Made by a program: the position numbers and the translations under genes. Positions 49,624 to 58,812 of a stretch of 64,000 nucleotides of DNA are shown here, one piece after another (positions within the stretch are counted from its first letter, which is position 1; the number at the start of each line of letters is the position of its first letter). Location: IMG/VR virus record IMGVR_UViG_3300049929_000026, positions 32,001 through 96,000 of that record; one strand, given 5' to 3'. The stretch is from a virus. The notes beneath the pieces were generated by a model that made no database searches, was not told the origin of the DNA, and worked only from the letters and a program-made list of their open reading frames with translations.

Positions 49624-50555
49624 TCCGCCGCCTGGGCCGCCGCCAGACCGCGTTCCATCGCCTCAGCGAAGGCAGCCTCGCTCATCCGCATCAGCACCCC
49701 GCCACGCCGCCCCTGGCCGCCCTGGCGCGGCTCAGTGGTCAACTGACAACGTGCGCGTCCGGTGCGGTCCTGAAAGCTCCTGAGGCCCGGCACGGCGCGC
49801 TTGGTCGCGAACCAGATGTCGTGCGCCTCGGCGTCCGCGGCGTGCGCTCGGTTCAGCGCCTCCCGAACTAGCTTCGCCCGGCGCGCCTGCTCGGACCGGT
49901 TGATCTTCCCCTTCCGGACTGGGGCGGGCTCGACGCAGGCGACGAACAGCTGGGCCGCGTCGTCGCAGAGTTCAAAGGCCAGCGCCGCGTAAACTCCGAG
50001 CCCCTCGTTGGTGTTCGTATTGCTACCCGTCCGAGTTGGGTCGTGTTGGCCCACGCGGCCGTCTGAGCCCTCAACATACCGATCCTTGGCTCCGAAGCCT
50101 TGGTCAGCCCGATACTGTGCTCTAGGGGCGCTGTAGCGCTTGCAGAGGGTGTTCTGGGTGGCGGCCGGCACAAGTCGCCAGGCTGCCATCAGGTGCCGAT
50201 GCAGCTCGATCTCGCCGATTCCGAGTACGCCTACGCCTAGCTGCATATCGGTAAAATGGTGCTTGTAGCTCCCTGCGCCGTCGAGATTGCCGGTCCCCCC
50301 AACCGAGCCGCGCTCAATTTGAGAGACCACGCCGGCCAGGGTGCCGCTTGCGCCCATCGCGGCGTCACCGCAAAGCAGAAACCACGCGAGTTGGTCGTCG
50401 TAAGACCCGTCTCGGGCTGGCCGAGGTCGGCGGTCTTTTGGAAGCTCGCGCGGCGACTCGACGGCCACGCGCGGCACGAGGGTCAATGTAGGCGCTAGGA
50501 CAACCGACTCACTGGTTACCGGGATCAACTCGGTAACCGCTTGCAATTCGGACAT
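49620..50555 (-). CDS. Hypothetical protein
   Basis: 311 aa; AAGGAG RBS lies inside a hairpin. Confidence 0.7.
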   Translation of the reverse strand: MSELQAVTELIPVTSESVVLAPTLTLVPRVAVESPRELPKDRRPRPARDGSYDDQLAWFLLCGDAAMGASGTLAGVVSQIERGSVGGTGNLDGAGSYKHHFTDMQLGVGVLGIGEIELHRHLMAAWRLVPAATQNTLCKRYSAPRAQYRADQGFGAKDRYVEGSDGRVGQHDPTRTGSNTNTNEGLGVYAALAFELCDDAAQLFVACVEPAPVRKGKINRSEQARRAKLVREALNRAHAADAEAHDIWFATKRAVPGLRSFQDRTGRARCQLTTEPRQGGQGRRGGVLMRMSEAAFAEAMERGLAAAQAAE

Positions 50556-50950: not shown

Positions 50951-50986
50951 CTCTCAACACCTGACTCTTTTTCTCTTCGTCAGCGG
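50951..50986 (-). CRISPR. Isolated degenerate CRISPR repeat
   Basis: 50951-50966 is identical to the last 16 nt of the repeat (AGTCAGGTGTTGAGAG); upstream AGAGAAAA partly conserved. Confidence 0.65.
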
Positions 50987-51057: not shown

Positions 51058-51633
51058 TCAAGCGGCTTTTGCTTTTCCAACCTGCTTCTGCAGCCGGGCG
51101 TTCTCCCGCTTCAGCGCCGTCACCTCCTTCGTGAGCGCCGCCACCTCGGTCTTTAGCCGGGCATTTTCCAGCTCTAAGCTGCCCTGCCGCTGGACGGCCC
51201 GGGTTGACGGAGCCAATGGGGCTTTCTTCTCGATCACGCCGTTGACGATACGTCGCACCTCCTTGGGGCTCGGCGCGCAGTGGTTTGCGTTGATGAACTG
51301 ATCGAGCGACGCCTCGACGAGCTGAACATTCGCCGTGTCAGCGGTGGCGCCTGGCGCCAGAAGGGCATGGCAAGACTCCACTCCAAGCGCCCGCACGCGA
51401 TCCACGCCGTAGATCTCGATCGCCTGGATCACGTTCCCATAACGGTTGAGCCCCATCGCGTTTGGGAACTCCCGCTGCAGGAAGTCACTGAACATCGGCG
51501 TCTCTGGCGTCTTCCAGATGCCCTGCGTCTCTACTGCTCGAAGCTCGAGGAAGAGATCAACTCCGCTCTCCAGCCAGTTAGCTAGGAGCGTACGGATTTT
51601 GGATACGGCTTGTTCATATGCTTGATTGCTCAT
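51058..51633 (-). CDS. Putative DNA-binding protein with C-terminal coiled coil, located between CRISPR repeats
   Basis: LELRAVETQGIWK....FSDFLQREF resembles DUF3102/partition-type helical domains; zipper LELENARLKTEVAALTKEVTALKRENARL; GGAG RBS. Confidence 0.7.
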   Translation of the reverse strand: MSNQAYEQAVSKIRTLLANWLESGVDLFLELRAVETQGIWKTPETPMFSDFLQREFPNAMGLNRYGNVIQAIEIYGVDRVRALGVESCHALLAPGATADTANVQLVEASLDQFINANHCAPSPKEVRRIVNGVIEKKAPLAPSTRAVQRQGSLELENARLKTEVAALTKEVTALKRENARLQKQVGKAKAA

Positions 51634-51643
51634 TTTAACTCCA

Positions 51644-51750
51644 CTCTCAACACCTGACTTTTCTCTGATCCGTTCCGAGAGCTGGATTCGCACAGCTGAG
51701 GACGGGTGCCCAACCTCTCAACACCTGACTTCTCTCTGATCCGTTCCGAG
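51644..51750 (-). CRISPR. Minimal CRISPR array: two 36-nt repeats, one 35-nt spacer
   Basis: CTCGGAACGGATCAGAGARAAGTCAGGTGTTGAGAG at 51715-51750 and 51644-51679 (1 mismatch); spacer GTTGGGCACCCGTCCTCAGCTGTGCGAATCCAGCT; 54 nt after the cas stop. Confidence 0.85.
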
Positions 51751-51804: not shown

Positions 51805-53430
51805 TCACTCCGCGGCCCCTGCTTCTGGGGCCAGAGAATCCGAACCGCTCGCAGTCTTGACGCCCTTCTTCCCGAGTCCGCGCTTCTTCGCGCCGGCCTC
51901 CTGCATCTTCGCTAGCGCGTGTTTCTTGCCCACATCGAGTAGATGATTCGCGCATGCGATACCATCCACCGATGCCTTCAATTGGCATTGCTCGCAACGA
52001 AACCAGGCCGGCACTCGCACAACCCGTTTCCAGACCTCGCCGTCGATGCGTTTGAACTCAACGACGTTGTCGCGGTGCTCAACGTTCGCTTCCGATGTGT
52101 GCGAGCAAGCCGGACATCGCTGCGAGACGAAGCGCGCGTTCTTGTAGTGCGTCCGGATCCCCACCTTGGTGAGCGCCCGATCGATCGTCTGCTGGCTTTC
52201 GTAGTAAGGCCACTGATGGATCAGTCGCTTCAGCTCGCTGTGGGCCTGTCCCTCGGTCTGCTTCTCGAAGTTCTCCCGGATCCCGGTCATGTTCTCCATA
52301 AACACGTCGCTAACTCCATGAAGCGTGCACCAGCGAGCGAAGTCCGCCGCGCGCTGCCGGATCCGGTCCTTGACTCGCCGCGCTTCTCGATCGCCGATGG
52401 CAGTCAGCGGGAGTTCGCGACGCTTCACGCCGCGTCCGCGGGACCCGCTGCCATGGGCACGCATTCCCTTTGCGATGCGGCGTCTCTGCGCGGCATATTG
52501 CTCACGCATCGCGATGATGTCAGTCCCCGGATCTTCCCACGTTGTGCCGTCCTCGGACATCGCCAGCATGAACACGTTGATCCCGAAGTTGCAGGCTACC
52601 GCATTGCCTGCCTTGTAGCCTTCGGCTCGGTGCTGAGACCACGAGATGAGCGCGAACCATTTACGCTTTCGCTCGTCGAACTTGATCCCGACCTTTCCAA
52701 GCTTGATCGACGCCTTCTCTTCGAGTTCGAACAGAGCTCGGTCCCTAGCCGCGCGCGCTGCCTTCATTACCTTGTCAGTGGCGTCTTTCGGGAGCGGTTT
52801 CTTGGCGGATCGCTCGAGCTCCACCACGCCTGCTCGGTTGCCCGCTCCACCCACCAGTTGCCTCCAAAGAACCACGGCGTTGCCGCCGCAAGGTGCAACA
52901 ACGAGAGACGTTGCACCTTTGCCGGTGCCAAAGAAAGGGAAGGTGAGCCGGGCATCGTCAGGTGTCCCTGAGACTTCGCAGTTGCGTCCCTCCGAGAAGA
53001 AGGACTTGCCGGACCCTTCGAACGTCGGCACGCCCGCGCGACCAGCCAGCAGATCCTTGAGATGCTGCCCAGCGAAGCGCGAAAGTATGTGGTCCGAGGT
53101 TTCGCTACACAGAACGTCCCCGGGCGGGACGTGAGCCGCTGCGTAGTCTTTGCCTGACTTCTTCAGCATGTACGCGCATCGTCGCTCCATGCCGCGAGCC
53201 CAATGGAATCGCAGCCGCTTACGGACATCGTTCTGCCAGGTCGTGCTTGGTTTCTGCTTCTCCGATATCGCCTCGAGTTGGGAAATGGCGCCAGGGTATA
53301 CGTCACGTAGCGAGAGATTCAGCGCCATCGGCAGTGTCTCGCGAAGGGCTCGCATTCGCGCTCCGAGTTCGCTCCAGCTACCATTTGCTGGCTTGACGAT
53401 CTCAACCTTGAGCGTCCCTGCCAGCTTCAT
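51805..53430 (-). CDS. cas12f: Cas12f1/TnpB-like RNA-guided protein, RuvC-I Asp replaced by Asn
   Basis: ACNFG (N281), GSGSRGRGVKRRELPL, FMENMTGIR (E379), QWPYYESQQTI, SQRCPAC..FRCEQC, VDGIACAN (D489); GGAGG RBS. Confidence 0.85.
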   Translation of the reverse strand: MKLAGTLKVEIVKPANGSWSELGARMRALRETLPMALNLSLRDVYPGAISQLEAISEKQKPSTTWQNDVRKRLRFHWARGMERRCAYMLKKSGKDYAAAHVPPGDVLCSETSDHILSRFAGQHLKDLLAGRAGVPTFEGSGKSFFSEGRNCEVSGTPDDARLTFPFFGTGKGATSLVVAPCGGNAVVLWRQLVGGAGNRAGVVELERSAKKPLPKDATDKVMKAARAARDRALFELEEKASIKLGKVGIKFDERKRKWFALISWSQHRAEGYKAGNAVACNFGINVFMLAMSEDGTTWEDPGTDIIAMREQYAAQRRRIAKGMRAHGSGSRGRGVKRRELPLTAIGDREARRVKDRIRQRAADFARWCTLHGVSDVFMENMTGIRENFEKQTEGQAHSELKRLIHQWPYYESQQTIDRALTKVGIRTHYKNARFVSQRCPACSHTSEANVEHRDNVVEFKRIDGEVWKRVVRVPAWFRCEQCQLKASVDGIACANHLLDVGKKHALAKMQEAGAKKRGLGKKGVKTASGSDSLAPEAGAAE

Positions 53431-53443
53431 TGAAAATCCTCCA

Positions 53444-53595
53444 AGTGATTCAAGGCAACCATCGACCGGCTAGTCAGGTGTTGACCATGCGACAAGCGCG
53501 TGGTCCTGCGGCCGAAGCCACTCAGCGAGTACGAAGACTCGCTATCTCGACGGTAGATCGCCGGTATTACCGGTCGTTGGCTGCCTTCAATCACT
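53444..53595 (-). ncRNA. Putative tracrRNA
   Basis: 13-nt anti-repeat TCAACACCTGACT (53472-53484); 26-bp closing stem 53444-53469/53570-53595 with a G-U pair on the minus strand; internal hairpin AGCGAGT..ACTCGCT. Confidence 0.75.
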
Positions 53596-53934: not shown

Positions 53935-54513
53935 ATGTTCAACTTAGACAAATTCGCCAATGCGGTGCTGCTCGTGTTGAACGAGAGTCCGTCGCCGCCT
54001 GGGTTGACGGTGCTTCTGAAGGTGCTGTTTCGGTCGGACTTCGCACACTATCAGGAGCATTTGCGTTCGATCACCGGAGTGGAGTACGTGGCACTCGAGC
54101 GCGGACCTGTTCCCCACGACTACCGCTCGCTTCTTCAGAAGCTAGCAAGCCGGGGCGACGTTGTGGCCGAACGTGTCGACGTTGCCTCGGGCTACAAGCC
54201 CATGGAGTGCTACCGCGCGCTCCGCCGTCCGGATCTCGCGGCCTTCGATCCGAGCGAACTTGCGGTGCTACGCGCGGTCATTGCGGCGGACGCGGGCAAA
54301 ACGGGAAAGCAGCTGAGCGACGAGACACATGCCGAACTCCCTTGGCGGGCTGTCTGGCGCGACGGGGAAGGCGAATCCGCCCAGATCCCCTATGCCCTCT
54401 CTCGCTGGGAAGAGAACCGTTGCAATGCGGCGGACCTCACTCAAGCCGCAAACGAGCTGCAGCGAACCGATGTGCAGGCGGTGATTGCGCAACTTGTTCG
54501 ACCAACTGGCTAG
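53935..54513 (+). CDS. Panacea-domain (DUF4065/SocA-like) antitoxin
   Basis: LLKVLFRSDFAHY......ITG.EY.AL.RGPVP, LSDETH...PW and IPY motifs. Confidence 0.85.
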   Translation: MFNLDKFANAVLLVLNESPSPPGLTVLLKVLFRSDFAHYQEHLRSITGVEYVALERGPVPHDYRSLLQKLASRGDVVAERVDVASGYKPMECYRALRRPDLAAFDPSELAVLRAVIAADAGKTGKQLSDETHAELPWRAVWRDGEGESAQIPYALSRWEENRCNAADLTQAANELQRTDVQAVIAQLVRPTG

Positions 54514-55394: not shown

Positions 55395-55964
55395 TCACGT
55401 GACCACCTTGATCCCGTTCGTCGCCGCTTGCGATCTGTCTATCGGCAGCCGCCCATGGCACGAGTTTTCTCCGGGCCTTGGGAAGTTCAACGCCGCAAAC
55501 TCGCCGAAATACTCGCGAGCCGCCGCGTCGTATGCCCGGGCAGCGTCCTCCTCATCCGTGAAGTACCCAAGGTGTTTTGGGACGTGTGTTTTCTGGTAGT
55601 ACTGGCCGCCAGAGATCATGGCTCGCCATTTCTTGCCGCGCTTGTACCAAGCAACACCTTTGAATCTAGACGTGCCAGTTGTACGAGCGCGCATATTGAA
55701 GTGATTTTTGGCAGTCGTCGTCGCTCGCAGATTTGTGCGGCGATTATTCAGCCCATCGCCGTCTCGGTGATCTACCTCCTCTGCGTCGGACAGGATCACT
55801 CGATGCATTAGCAACAGCTTCTGTTCACCGTTTTCGCAATGAAGCCTGCGGGCGTACCAAGTGTTCCGATGCTGCCAAGCGTGCCAAGTCTTTCCCGCAA
55901 AGAGGTGCGCGTCAGCCTCGTCTACGATCGCCTTCATTCCGTTGCTAAGAATGATCTCCGTCAT
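55395..55964 (-). CDS. HNH endonuclease with AP2 domain
   Basis: VDHRDGDGLNNRRTNLR; SRFKGV..HLGYFTDEEDAARAYD. Confidence 0.92.
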   Translation of the reverse strand: MTEIILSNGMKAIVDEADAHLFAGKTWHAWQHRNTWYARRLHCENGEQKLLLMHRVILSDAEEVDHRDGDGLNNRRTNLRATTTAKNHFNMRARTTGTSRFKGVAWYKRGKKWRAMISGGQYYQKTHVPKHLGYFTDEEDAARAYDAAAREYFGEFAALNFPRPGENSCHGRLPIDRSQAATNGIKVVT

Positions 55965-56002: not shown

Positions 56003-58812
56003 TAAGCGGACCGACGAATCGACTTCTTGTCGAGGTATGCCTGCGCGATTTTCTTCATTCGGTCCAGGTCGACTTCTTGAGGCAGATCGTTGCCGACTTT
56101 CAGATCTCGTACGCCTTCAAGCTGCGCGCGCTTGATTCCCAAAATGTCGCTGATCACCGGATCGGATCCCTCGTCGGCGAGTAGGAAATAGGAGAACACG
56201 GGAAGCAGCTGGCCATCGCGGTGAATCCTGGTGTCGTTCTGCTCATGGATCCCAGGGCTATAGTCGAGCTCAGCGGACACGACGTTATTGCAGACGTGCT
56301 GAAGCCCGTCGAGCCCCTCACCGGAACGCAGGCTCATGATCAGGATCTTGGTTTCGCCTGCGATAAAGCGCCGCTTGGACTCCTCCTTCTCTTTGACCGA
56401 TTCGAGTCCCGTGTAGAAAGCGGGAGCGAAGTCCTTCAGCTTATCGCGCAGCACGTCATACACGGCGTGATGCCACGCGAAGCACACAACTGACTCGCCG
56501 CCCTCCACCAGCATCCTCAGGAACTCCGCCACATACGGCGCCTTCGCCAGCCCCGTAGATTGGCGCAACAGATTGTCGAGCTTGCCTGCGGCCTGCATGC
56601 GCGCACCCTTCGACATCTCACCCTTCGCGAGAATCGTGCGCGCCAAAGCCGTGGCTTGACCATCGACAGCATCGAGCACCTTTTGATCGAAATCGATGTA
56701 GTGCGGGATCCGCGTAAGCGCGGGCAACTGACGTCCGACGTCTTCCTTCGTGCGCCGAATCATCAATCCGGAATCGCGCAGGTACGAGCCCATCGCCTCA
56801 GGTGATTTGAGTTTCAGTTTGCCGGGCTTGTCGGCGTCTCCGGTGCAGTGCTCCTGCTTGAATTCGCTGAGCAGTCCGAGCGCGCCAGGGCGAATGAATT
56901 CCATCACGTTCCAGAGCTCGCCGCCGAGATTTAGAAATGGAGTTCCGGAGAGGCCGATTCGGAACTGAACCCGGCGGGATATTTTCATCGCGGCCTTGCC
57001 CTTATTGGTGTCCTCGCCATTTCTAAATTCGTGAACCTCGTCATAGACGACGCTCCCTAACTTCACGAGTTGTGCCTGTCCGGCGAGCTTTTCGTTTCCA
57101 GAGAGATAGTCGCCCCATCCTGGGATCTTCGAATAGCTCGTGATGATCACATCAGGCAGAACGCCGCCGCATTGTTTCGCGATGTCATATGGACGCGTTC
57201 CTCTCAAAATGTGCGTCGACATGCGCGGCAAGAACTTGCGAAGCTCCGCTTGCCACTGCGATGGCAGGGCAGTCTTCGTCACCACGAGCGCGGGGCGTGT
57301 TCGCGGGTCGGTCAAAGCACAGGCGGCAGAGATCGTGTTGTGCGTCGCGAGATACCCGTCTGTCAGATATAGATGACGTTTTGAGCTGACCCGGATACAT
57401 TGGACTGGTTTAATCCCCGCAGGTTCGACTGTTTTGATAGCGCGGGCCATCAACGGCATACGCCATCGCTCAGCCTTGCGTTTGAGAGCGAATGGGCAAA
57501 TCGGTATACGGATATGTACCGTATATGAGAGACGCCCCTGACGGCGCTCCCCAAGATGTTCGTAATTAGTGTGTCGGCTGTACAACGACGCGAACCCACC
57601 TAATGTACCAACAAGATCTTGTACGCCCTCCGCCAATGGCAAAGAGGTCGATGTGAACGTGACGGTACCGCTCGTTCCACATGTGCCATCCGTGTCCATC
57701 AGCCCCTTGAGTAGAGCCAAACGATCGCTCACTGCGGCGCACAGGTACTCATGCGGGATAGTCTTTTCCCACGAGCGCTTCCCAGCCAGCCCTAACGCGC
57801 GCAACGCTTCTATCAGCGCGTTTTTTTGTCCACCGCGATTCCCGCTGGTAATGTTGTAGTCGAAATTGGACCCGCAAACGGGATGTAGCCATAGCCCGGG
57901 CGGAAGCGCAGATATCACATGATCAAGAATTTCTTGATCAGCAGATGATATTGCAACTCCTGCCTGCTTTAGATGCCCATCTCCCAAGAGAACCCCGAGC
58001 AGATACGCTGGTATCGGCAATGGGGGCGCCGGGGCAAACGTGACCGGCTTGGATATTGGCAGGAAGTACTTCGAGTTGACCCTCCCTTTGCCCATGTCGG
58101 TATTCAAGGACTTGCGGATCTCTGAGAGCGGCAATGTCCTGCTCTTACCGGTATATCGGTCTTGCGCAGTGTGGACGGTCCATAGATGCTCATCGCAGCA
58201 TTCTGCGGATGCTCCGTCGGCTGTTGTAACACGAAACACGGGGCGATCTCCTTGTGGAAATATCGCTTCGACGAATGCCGTGCCGCCGTCCGGATCGCTG
58301 ATTTCATCGCCCACGGCGAGCTCGCCCATTTTCCTCCAACCATATGGAGTGAGAACCACTGCGTCTAATGGCTGAGCCTTGCCCAGGCCCATCTGGTCGC
58401 CGATGAGCACCCCACCTGTCCGCAGCGCGAGCTCCGCTGCCACCTTCTGGTAGTCGCGTGGCGGCAACGCGAGTTTGAATTCTTGCGGTTTACGCGCTGG
58501 GTCCCCGATAATTTGGTGGACCGCAAATTCCGCTTCGCGGTGTTCATTCGCGCGTCGCGCAAGCCGGATCTCGCTCTCCTTATCGACGTAGTCGAACGGG
58601 AACCGTGATTGAAACCACTCGATGTCCCGTGACACCTCAGGCGTGTCCATGATGCAGATGATCTCGCGCGTCTTTCCCGCTTGGTATCGCGGCTTCGACA
58701 TTCGCGGGAACACGCGACGCATGCGCAATAACACGTGTGGATCGCACTCAATGATCCAAGAACCATGGTGGTACTTTAGCGTCCCGTAGGTTTTGATCTC
58801 TTCTTTGCTCAC
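56002..58812 (-). CDS. SNF2-family helicase with intein
   Basis: GDQMGLGK/T split by the intein, VYDEVH, LSGTP, GEGLDGLQ, RIHRDGQ. Confidence 0.93.
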   Translation of the reverse strand: MSKEEIKTYGTLKYHHGSWIIECDPHVLLRMRRVFPRMSKPRYQAGKTREIICIMDTPEVSRDIEWFQSRFPFDYVDKESEIRLARRANEHREAEFAVHQIIGDPARKPQEFKLALPPRDYQKVAAELALRTGGVLIGDQMGLGKAQPLDAVVLTPYGWRKMGELAVGDEISDPDGGTAFVEAIFPQGDRPVFRVTTADGASAECCDEHLWTVHTAQDRYTGKSRTLPLSEIRKSLNTDMGKGRVNSKYFLPISKPVTFAPAPPLPIPAYLLGVLLGDGHLKQAGVAISSADQEILDHVISALPPGLWLHPVCGSNFDYNITSGNRGGQKNALIEALRALGLAGKRSWEKTIPHEYLCAAVSDRLALLKGLMDTDGTCGTSGTVTFTSTSLPLAEGVQDLVGTLGGFASLYSRHTNYEHLGERRQGRLSYTVHIRIPICPFALKRKAERWRMPLMARAIKTVEPAGIKPVQCIRVSSKRHLYLTDGYLATHNTISAACALTDPRTRPALVVTKTALPSQWQAELRKFLPRMSTHILRGTRPYDIAKQCGGVLPDVIITSYSKIPGWGDYLSGNEKLAGQAQLVKLGSVVYDEVHEFRNGEDTNKGKAAMKISRRVQFRIGLSGTPFLNLGGELWNVMEFIRPGALGLLSEFKQEHCTGDADKPGKLKLKSPEAMGSYLRDSGLMIRRTKEDVGRQLPALTRIPHYIDFDQKVLDAVDGQATALARTILAKGEMSKGARMQAAGKLDNLLRQSTGLAKAPYVAEFLRMLVEGGESVVCFAWHHAVYDVLRDKLKDFAPAFYTGLESVKEKEESKRRFIAGETKILIMSLRSGEGLDGLQHVCNNVVSAELDYSPGIHEQNDTRIHRDGQLLPVFSYFLLADEGSDPVISDILGIKRAQLEGVRDLKVGNDLPQEVDLDRMKKIAQAYLDKKSIRRSA
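57337..58377 (-). mobile_element. Class 3-type intein (347 aa) with LAGLIDADG endonuclease
   Basis: Starts Ala (AQPLD), ends THN/T; HLW, VQCIRV and THN give the W-C-T triad; LLGVLLGDG and LLKGLMDTDG. Confidence 0.9.

Follow-up and report, generated by a model that had tools for sequence, protein, structure and literature searches.

A virus-encoded Cas12f-like effector with asparagine at the first RuvC catalytic position as a candidate for RNA-guided DNA binding without cutting

The effector gene and its locus

The window analysed here is a stretch of 64,000 bases, representing bases 32001-96000 of the 137,618-base virus record IMGVR_UViG_3300049929_000026 (estimated to be 86% complete) of a soil phage, and its subject is a gene at 51805..53430 on the minus strand. 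The translated open reading frame (ORF) of 541 amino acids plus a stop codon is that of a Cas12f-like effector whose RuvC triad reads N-E-D and which has a C4 zinc finger, and the gene occurs as a single copy in the whole 137.6-kb record. Beginning 54 nt past its stop codon is a CRISPR mini-array, also on the minus strand (51644..51750), which consists of a 36-nt repeat (51715-51750), a 35-nt spacer (51680-51714), and a second 36-nt repeat (51644-51679). Just after these two repeats, and on the same strand, lies a conserved partner gene (51058..51633) encoding 191 amino acids plus a stop codon, with a helical N-terminal domain and a C-terminal coiled coil. A lone degenerate repeat is found at 50951..50986 (minus strand), with its 16 3′-terminal bases (50951-50966) exact. 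Finally, upstream of the effector gene, at 53472..53484 on the plus strand, there are 13 bases identical to part of the minus-strand repeat (a 13/16 match). A minus-strand transcript of this segment would carry the repeat's complement, making it, as read from the sequence, a possible candidate for the anti-repeat of a trans-activating CRISPR RNA (tracrRNA).

Asparagine at the first catalytic position

The RuvC-I motif of the effector, AVACNFGIN, spans residues 277-285 (52576..52602, minus strand), as placed by translation and by alignment with the GIDLGV motif of AsCas12f. Within it, codon 281 (52588..52590, minus strand; GTT on the plus strand) is AAC, which puts Asn281 where the first catalytic Asp would be. 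The two remaining members of the triad are Glu379 of RuvC-II, encoded by GAG at 52294..52296, and Asp489 of RuvC-III, encoded by GAT at 51964..51966, while the zinc-finger (TNB) segment containing C439, C442, C479, and C482 lies at 51985..52116, all on the minus strand. The initial annotation, made from the sequence of the window, had described a Cas12f- or TnpB-type effector with a natural Asp-to-Asn replacement at RuvC-I, a retained Glu and Asp, an intact ORF with all four zinc cysteines, and a diverged RuvC-III context. This description stands in each of its parts: the Asn codon aligns under the RuvC-I Asp of AsCas12f, the Glu and Asp codons can be read directly, the cysteines are present, the RuvC-III divergence proved to be family-wide, and a search for Asp-bearing reads or close homologues found none.

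Placement of the triad is consistent between sequence and structural comparisons. In a phmmer search of the PDB, AsCas12f was the top match (8j12, E 1.1e-9), and the HMMER alignment to this entry sets N281 under the D of GIDLGV and E379 under the E of QMEDLT; in the AsCas12f sequences deposited as 7wju and 8dzj, the N281 column holds an Ala put in place of the Asp. In an AlphaFold model built on 27 homologues (mean predicted local distance difference test score, or pLDDT, of 84.9), N281 and E379 close the strands formed by residues 276-281 and 373-379, respectively, and D489 is at the beginning of helix 488-499. Such locations are typical of a RuvC triad in the RNase H fold.

AAC is a single change from GAC, and the initial annotation had accordingly cautioned that the Asn might stem from a recent mutation or a wrong base call. 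That an active Cas12f was lately inactivated in this way, or its codon misread, is now extremely improbable and can be regarded as already refuted. Contigs were obtained from two sequencing runs, X1, possibly the source sample, and X2, from another sample and another study, also of soil; a third run, X3, yielded no contig on the stretch. The X2 contig of 286 bases covers 52498-52783 and spans codon 281, and the contigs of X1 and X2 show not one letter that differs from the window over that interval. Homologues at 76% and 71% identity likewise have no Asp at RuvC-I, nor does any of the 50 family members or 23 of 23 readable related loci described below. The column is never Asp in an alignment of 27 proteins recovered by a word-indexed search (query included, with identity down to about 23-28%), and 17 columns are invariant across these aligned homologues. 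Since the codon reads the same in an independent run and the homologues are without Asp, recent mutation and error are both rejected, and Asn281 is a true, inherited, and old state of the RuvC-I position.

Residues of the RuvC site across the family

HMMER, run exhaustively against 1.84 billion representatives, returned 498 matches at E <= 0.001. The E-values fall sharply, from 1e-49 to 1e-26, past the boundary of a family of 50 proteins at E <= 1e-17 (49 of them at E <= 1e-55), beyond which there are more than 100 outer relatives. All stored matches of at least 300 amino acids were aligned, giving 50 rows for the family (P0001-P0050) and 112 for the outer relatives, with seven shorter fragments left out.

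The RuvC-I residue of the family is N in 41 rows, H in five, V in two, and R and I in one each, with no Asp. The outer relatives present a wider mixture, with N in 48 rows, H in 40, R in 13, Q and T in three each, V and D in two each, and I in one. The first Asp is thus absent in 160/162 relatives. RuvC-II Glu is present in 43/50 family rows and 86/112 outer rows, and the corresponding figures for RuvC-III Asp are 49/50 and 107/112. When the residues are read together as triads, the family comprises 39 NED, three HED, and two HPD proteins, along with single examples of RED, NDD, NLD, VVD, VVE, and IQD, and no DED; among the 112 outer relatives, NED (40) and HED (34) are accompanied by two DED proteins. 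All four zinc cysteines are present in 50/50 family rows and 111/112 outer rows. The context of RuvC-III has a pattern of its own, in which D is found in 49/50 family members and an Asn six residues after it in 47/50, while the Asn two residues after D that characterizes the canonical NADxN motif occurs in just 1/50.

The RuvC-I and RuvC-II residues do not appear to vary independently. Glu is kept in 39/41 family members with Asn, and the three members with a hydrophobic RuvC-I residue (V or I) have lost the RuvC-II Glu too, which suggests joint retention of Asn and Glu. Across all rows, RuvC-I is N, H, R, Q, or T in 153/162 and Asp489 is kept in 156/162; a mostly polar ligand at RuvC-I coupled with retention of Asp489 fits a binding site in use, and not one in decay. 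In a FastTree phylogeny of the 153 rows of at least 400 amino acids, from which the RuvC-I column had been excluded, the residue was found to be clustered, with 26 changes as compared to 60.9 when the labels were shuffled. The tree is a quick one with many weak forks and was used only to show inheritance. Judged from these sequences, the non-Asp state of RuvC-I is old and selected.

Family assignment and comparison with known systems

In a search of the PDB with the family profile, AsCas12f was best at E 3e-33, followed by SpCas12f1, OsCas12f, and UnCas12f, and no Cas12m chain reached E 1. Foldseek comparison of the effector model gave a similar ranking, with AsCas12f (E 3e-20) ahead of other Cas12f entries, natural dCas12f (9n9c) at E 1.2e-11, Cas12m2 (8hhl) at rank 25 (E 6.6e-9), and Cas12k at rank 36 or lower. 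Curated models fell short of their cut-offs, with NCBIfam guided_TnpB scoring 77.1 bits (cut-off of 100) and Pfam Cas12f1-like_TNB scoring 24.2 bits, just under its cut-off of 26.3. Because Cas12f ranks best by both profile and fold, the effector is assigned, on sequence and on the predicted model, to a Cas12f-like (type V-F-like) lineage lacking the D-E-D of active nucleases, and by descent it does not belong to Cas12m. Type V-F Cas12f proteins have a TnpB-like fold made of WED, REC, split RuvC, and zinc-finger (TNB) domains, and the matches to solved Cas12f structures place the effector in this fold; active members also have an intact D-E-D triad and form an asymmetric homodimer on one guide RNA.

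AsCas12f and other type V-F Cas12f1 proteins (8j12, 7wju, 8dzj, 9i8y, 9nzq) therefore provide the nearest point of reference, with the best sequence and fold match, a C4 zinc finger, an adjoining array, and a possible tracrRNA anti-repeat in common with the effector. Differences include Asn at RuvC-I, the diverged NADxN context, a conserved gene for a 191-residue partner, and a predicted loss of cutting, and the effector is also some 120 residues longer than the AsCas12f chains (422-432 residues). Cas12m (type V-M, formerly V-U1; MmCas12m2 and GoCas12m) is likewise a compact type V effector with a non-canonical triad, but it belongs to a different family and uses CRISPR RNA (crRNA) alone.

Other naturally inactive relatives of TnpB and Cas12 that serve in RNA-guided binding are Cas12k (type V-K) and TldR; TldRs are not known to have CRISPR arrays. 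Cas12k systems have Tn7-like genes (TniQ, TnsB, and TnsC) nearby. A search for TniQ gave no match, but its control likewise matched nothing anywhere. Transposon-borne TnpB of IS200/IS605 elements (obligate mobile element-guided activity, or OMEGA, systems) is marked by TnpA or transposon ends, several copies, and a single omega-RNA guide, and it differs from the effector, which is single copy, has no Y1 transposase in the searched 137.6-kb record, and is accompanied by a repeat-spacer-repeat layout. A parallel is found in dCas12f-sigmaE (9n9c), which is similarly derived from Cas12f, has lost cutting, and acts with a partner protein. However, dCas12f-sigmaE represents a different, truncated, and mostly array-less clade, with RuvC-III removed and an rpoE gene adjacent (PMC12259090), whereas the effector of the window keeps RuvC-III (D489), the zinc finger, and an array. 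When the eight neighbouring ORFs were scanned in Pfam, neither a sigma-factor family nor Tn7-type genes were seen.

In their census of TnpB and Cas12 proteins, Altae-Tran et al. (2023, PMC10691335) described large branches of Cas12f in which the catalytic site is altered. Among the groups of the census is V-U24, a CRISPR-associated type with a non-canonical RuvC-I and a partner with a helix-turn-helix (HTH) domain of unknown function (PMC10691335). By description, the CRISPR association and the non-canonical RuvC-I fit the effector family; an HTH nature of the 191-residue partner would rest on the weak matches given below (KorB Z 6.0, ParB Z 7.0, Atlas TM 0.50). V-U24 was named only in PMC10691335 among the CRISPR papers searched, and within that literature no paper was found that characterizes the effector family, the altered Cas12f branches, or V-U24.

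Related loci, arrays, and spacers

Scans for related loci recovered four on virus contigs and 20 on metagenome contigs, with near-copy pairs among them (L015/L016, L018/L019, L024/L025, and L027/L028). At RuvC-I, the 24 related effector ORFs comprise ten with N, twelve with H, one with R, and none with D, the last ORF being a fragment without the region (hence the 23 readable). Arrays of 3-14 repeats share the locus with the effector in 18/24 instances, most of them within ~1.5 kb, and L007 constitutes a 19th locus with an array, for which three repeats were detected by another tool. In the outer, near-identical, H-E-D loci L027 (6114-6664) and L028 (5708-6321), four spacers are common at one end of the array and three differ at the other, which suggests ongoing spacer gain or loss. 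The 5′ parts of the repeats vary among L010, L018-L020, L026, and the window, but all have in common a purine-rich 3′ end of the type GGTGTTG(A/G)(A/G)AG, which is also what the lone half repeat of the window retains. Searches for Cas1, with controls that worked, gave no match in the window's record or in four related virus records.

The only match to a GenBank phage was a 467-residue "transposase-like protein" of Virus Rctr197k (KX853510.1; L031 2998-4893), a 197-kb phage from an enrichment culture. The match is at 25.6% identity, and the protein has an H-E-D triad and is adjoined by an annotated CRISPR region, so that the wider lineage is represented in a public record. An ORF that follows this array has no detectable kinship to the 191-residue partner.

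Potential targets were sought for the 35-nt spacer of the mini-array, and no second copy of it turned up in the window. Elsewhere in the 137.6-kb record there is a single match to its first 20 bases, of 17/20 bases at C1:118725-118744, and the next 15 bases agree at 2/15; this match is probably due to chance. Position C1:118725-118744 is outside the window, at the 3′ end of an ORF of 111 amino acids. There were no exact matches to the first 20 bases in the viral collection, and the one exact 20-base match among 596 billion bases of genomes, in a metagenome-assembled genome of the Tepidiformaceae, does not extend further and was rejected as a target, about one such match being expected by chance. 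When 152 spacers of the related arrays were compared by BLAST with all loci and the record, self matches and short matches were all that resulted.

The partner gene

Conservation of the 191-residue partner is evident across the family loci, where tblastn matches to it occur directly downstream of the effector and on the same strand in 11/15. Three of the loci without a match (L012, L014, and L019) have at most 402 bases of contig left downstream, leaving L013 as the only real miss. Clustering by blastp further showed that the partner ORF family follows the effector or the array in the outer loci L022, L023, L026, and L027.

The partner is entirely helical in its AlphaFold model (mean pLDDT 89.1), and its C-terminal part forms a long coiled coil. 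Foldseek found nothing in the PDB at E <= 0.001, and a wide structure search returned mostly coiled-coil rows. The best rows over the N-terminal domain were those of ParB (Z 7.0, root-mean-square deviation, or rmsd, of 10.7, 130 residues aligned) and KorB (Z 6.0, rmsd 3.9, 110 aligned), with Z scores below the level trusted for helical proteins, and leads from the Atlas were ParB_N/HTH_ParB and DUF3102, at a template modelling (TM) score of 0.50. A Pfam scan of nine partner homologues yielded coiled-coil noise only and nothing for the N-terminal domain, and PHROGs contributed one weak family of unknown function. Prediction of an effector-partner complex scored 0.00 relative to a mark of 0.32; controls for it were not run, and it constitutes no evidence either way.

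Probable guided binding without cutting

In RuvC and RNase H enzymes, replacing the first acidic residue, an Asp, by Asn generally abolishes cutting and leaves substrate binding in place. The residues that occupy RuvC-I across these proteins (N, H, or R), together with a strongly conserved Asp489 and a mostly kept Glu379, would fit a site kept for binding, and our analysis favours the effector as an RNA-guided DNA binder that does not cut and probably works like Cas12m. In the account of the H-D-D protein Cas12m2 by Omura et al. (PMC10442227), only one Mg ion is present, held like the displaced (non-target) strand by His317 and Asp579; the second ion is missing, and DNA is bound and left uncut. 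The same account includes N-E-D among the triads of other Cas12m clades (PMC10442227). Moreover, D-E-D, H-D-D, and N-D-D orthologues of Cas12m have been described as binding DNA without cutting it while still interfering with plasmids and phages (Bigelyte et al., PMC11013384).

By analogy, the effector would be loaded with the guide from the mini-array, probably along with a tracrRNA from upstream of its gene. It would then find matching DNA, form an R-loop, and stay bound without making a double-strand break, and the bound protein would keep the target from being transcribed or replicated, as happens with Cas12m. Asn281, Glu379, and Asp489 may have been kept to hold a metal ion and the displaced strand, much like His317 and Asp579 of Cas12m2, and the 191-residue partner would act with the effector.

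Several points weigh against such a mechanism. With Glu379 and Asp489 both retained, and since metal can also be bound by an Asn side chain, there may be room for weak, nicking, single-strand, or RNA-directed activity; the census argues that conserved alterations of the RuvC site often mean altered, and not lost, activity (PMC10691335). Cas12m2 stayed unable to cut after its triad was changed back to D-E-D (PMC10442227, PMC11013384), and D-E-D Cas12m is likewise non-cutting, so that the triad alone does not decide activity. Finally, the array in the window has a single spacer, and no target for it was found in the window, the record, or the viral and genome collections searched.

It is conceivable, then, that N-E-D constitutes an altered but working centre that nicks, cuts single-stranded DNA or RNA, processes its own precursor crRNA (pre-crRNA), or uses another metal. 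The presence of Glu in 39 of the 41 Asn-bearing family members, of Asp489 in all but one of the 50, and the apparent joint retention of Asn and Glu (both being lost in the three hydrophobic members) would all be expected of an active site, the census takes conserved alterations to be a sign of probable retained activity (PMC10691335), and pre-crRNA processing by the RuvC site is described for other Cas12 types (PMC10442227). Even so, we consider such a centre unlikely, for the first Asp has been replaced by N, H, or R, residues of differing chemistry that fit the binding of a ligand or phosphate better than a single conserved mode of catalysis, the canonical NADxN context of RuvC-III has been lost as well, and H-D-D and N-D-D Cas12m proteins do not cut DNA (PMC10442227, PMC11013384). 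The relic hypothesis, by which the effector gene is decaying and without function, could draw on an array of just two repeats and on the failure to find adaptation genes, but it is highly improbable for a gene with an intact ORF, 17 invariant columns among its aligned homologues, zinc cysteines in 50/50 family members, and a conserved partner gene.

A different alternative concerns purpose: effector and partner might together form an RNA-guided regulator of host or phage genes, comparable to TldR and dCas12f-sigmaE, and have no part in interference with competitors. The one spacer of the mini-array and the lone half repeat beside a start codon are features that such a role would explain, as are the conservation of the partner and its weak likeness to the DNA-binding domains of ParB and KorB, and a natural dCas12f does act with a partner in transcription (PMC12259090). 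Relatives of the locus, however, look more like immune systems, with arrays that reach 14 repeats and with spacer turnover between L027 and L028 that would not be expected of fixed regulation, and no self-target occurs in the record, where the sole partial match fails after 17/20 bases. Dedicated regulation is thus a rather doubtful explanation, and binding without cutting, in the manner of Cas12m, is the reading that we retain.

Neighbouring genes

Divergent from the effector gene, and just upstream of it, is a gene at 53935-54510 on the plus strand for a protein of 192 amino acids with a SocA/Panacea antitoxin-like domain (E 3.5e-13). Further along, at 55398-55964 on the minus strand, is an HNH endonuclease with an AP2 domain, which is typical of phage homing endonucleases, and at 56005-58812, also on the minus strand, is a SNF2-type helicase of 936 amino acids. 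The SNF2 match of the latter covers residues 134-712 and contains a LAGLIDADG domain at residues 364-416, which looks like an intein or a homing-endonuclease insertion. A 16-bp palindrome, GTGGTCA-NN-TGACCAC, occurs in four copies around the locus, at 49735, 50986, 55391, and 55987, and one of these copies abuts the lone half repeat.

Significance

Effectors of this kind are already known from Cas12m and dCas12f, and the lineage itself was found mentioned only in passing, in the census (PMC10691335). Among natural effectors that do not cut, Cas12k, Cas12m, dCas12f-sigmaE, and TldR each brought to light a new role for RNA guides, and compact tools for gene control and base editing have come from them. 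Were the present effector to bind without cutting, it would represent an independent, Cas12f-derived parallel to Cas12m, and it could help to show what use phages make of such systems. Several members of the lineage are found on virus records, and it is tempting, if still tentative, to suggest that the N/H-E-D effector and its helical, coiled-coil partner of 191 amino acids (possibly ParB- or KorB-like) might constitute a two-protein, RNA-guided DNA-binding machine that is distinct from both Cas12m and dCas12f-sigmaE. Phages could conceivably use such a machine to silence or otherwise act on the DNA of a competitor or host without cutting it, with the partner adding a second activity such as spreading, bridging, or recruitment.

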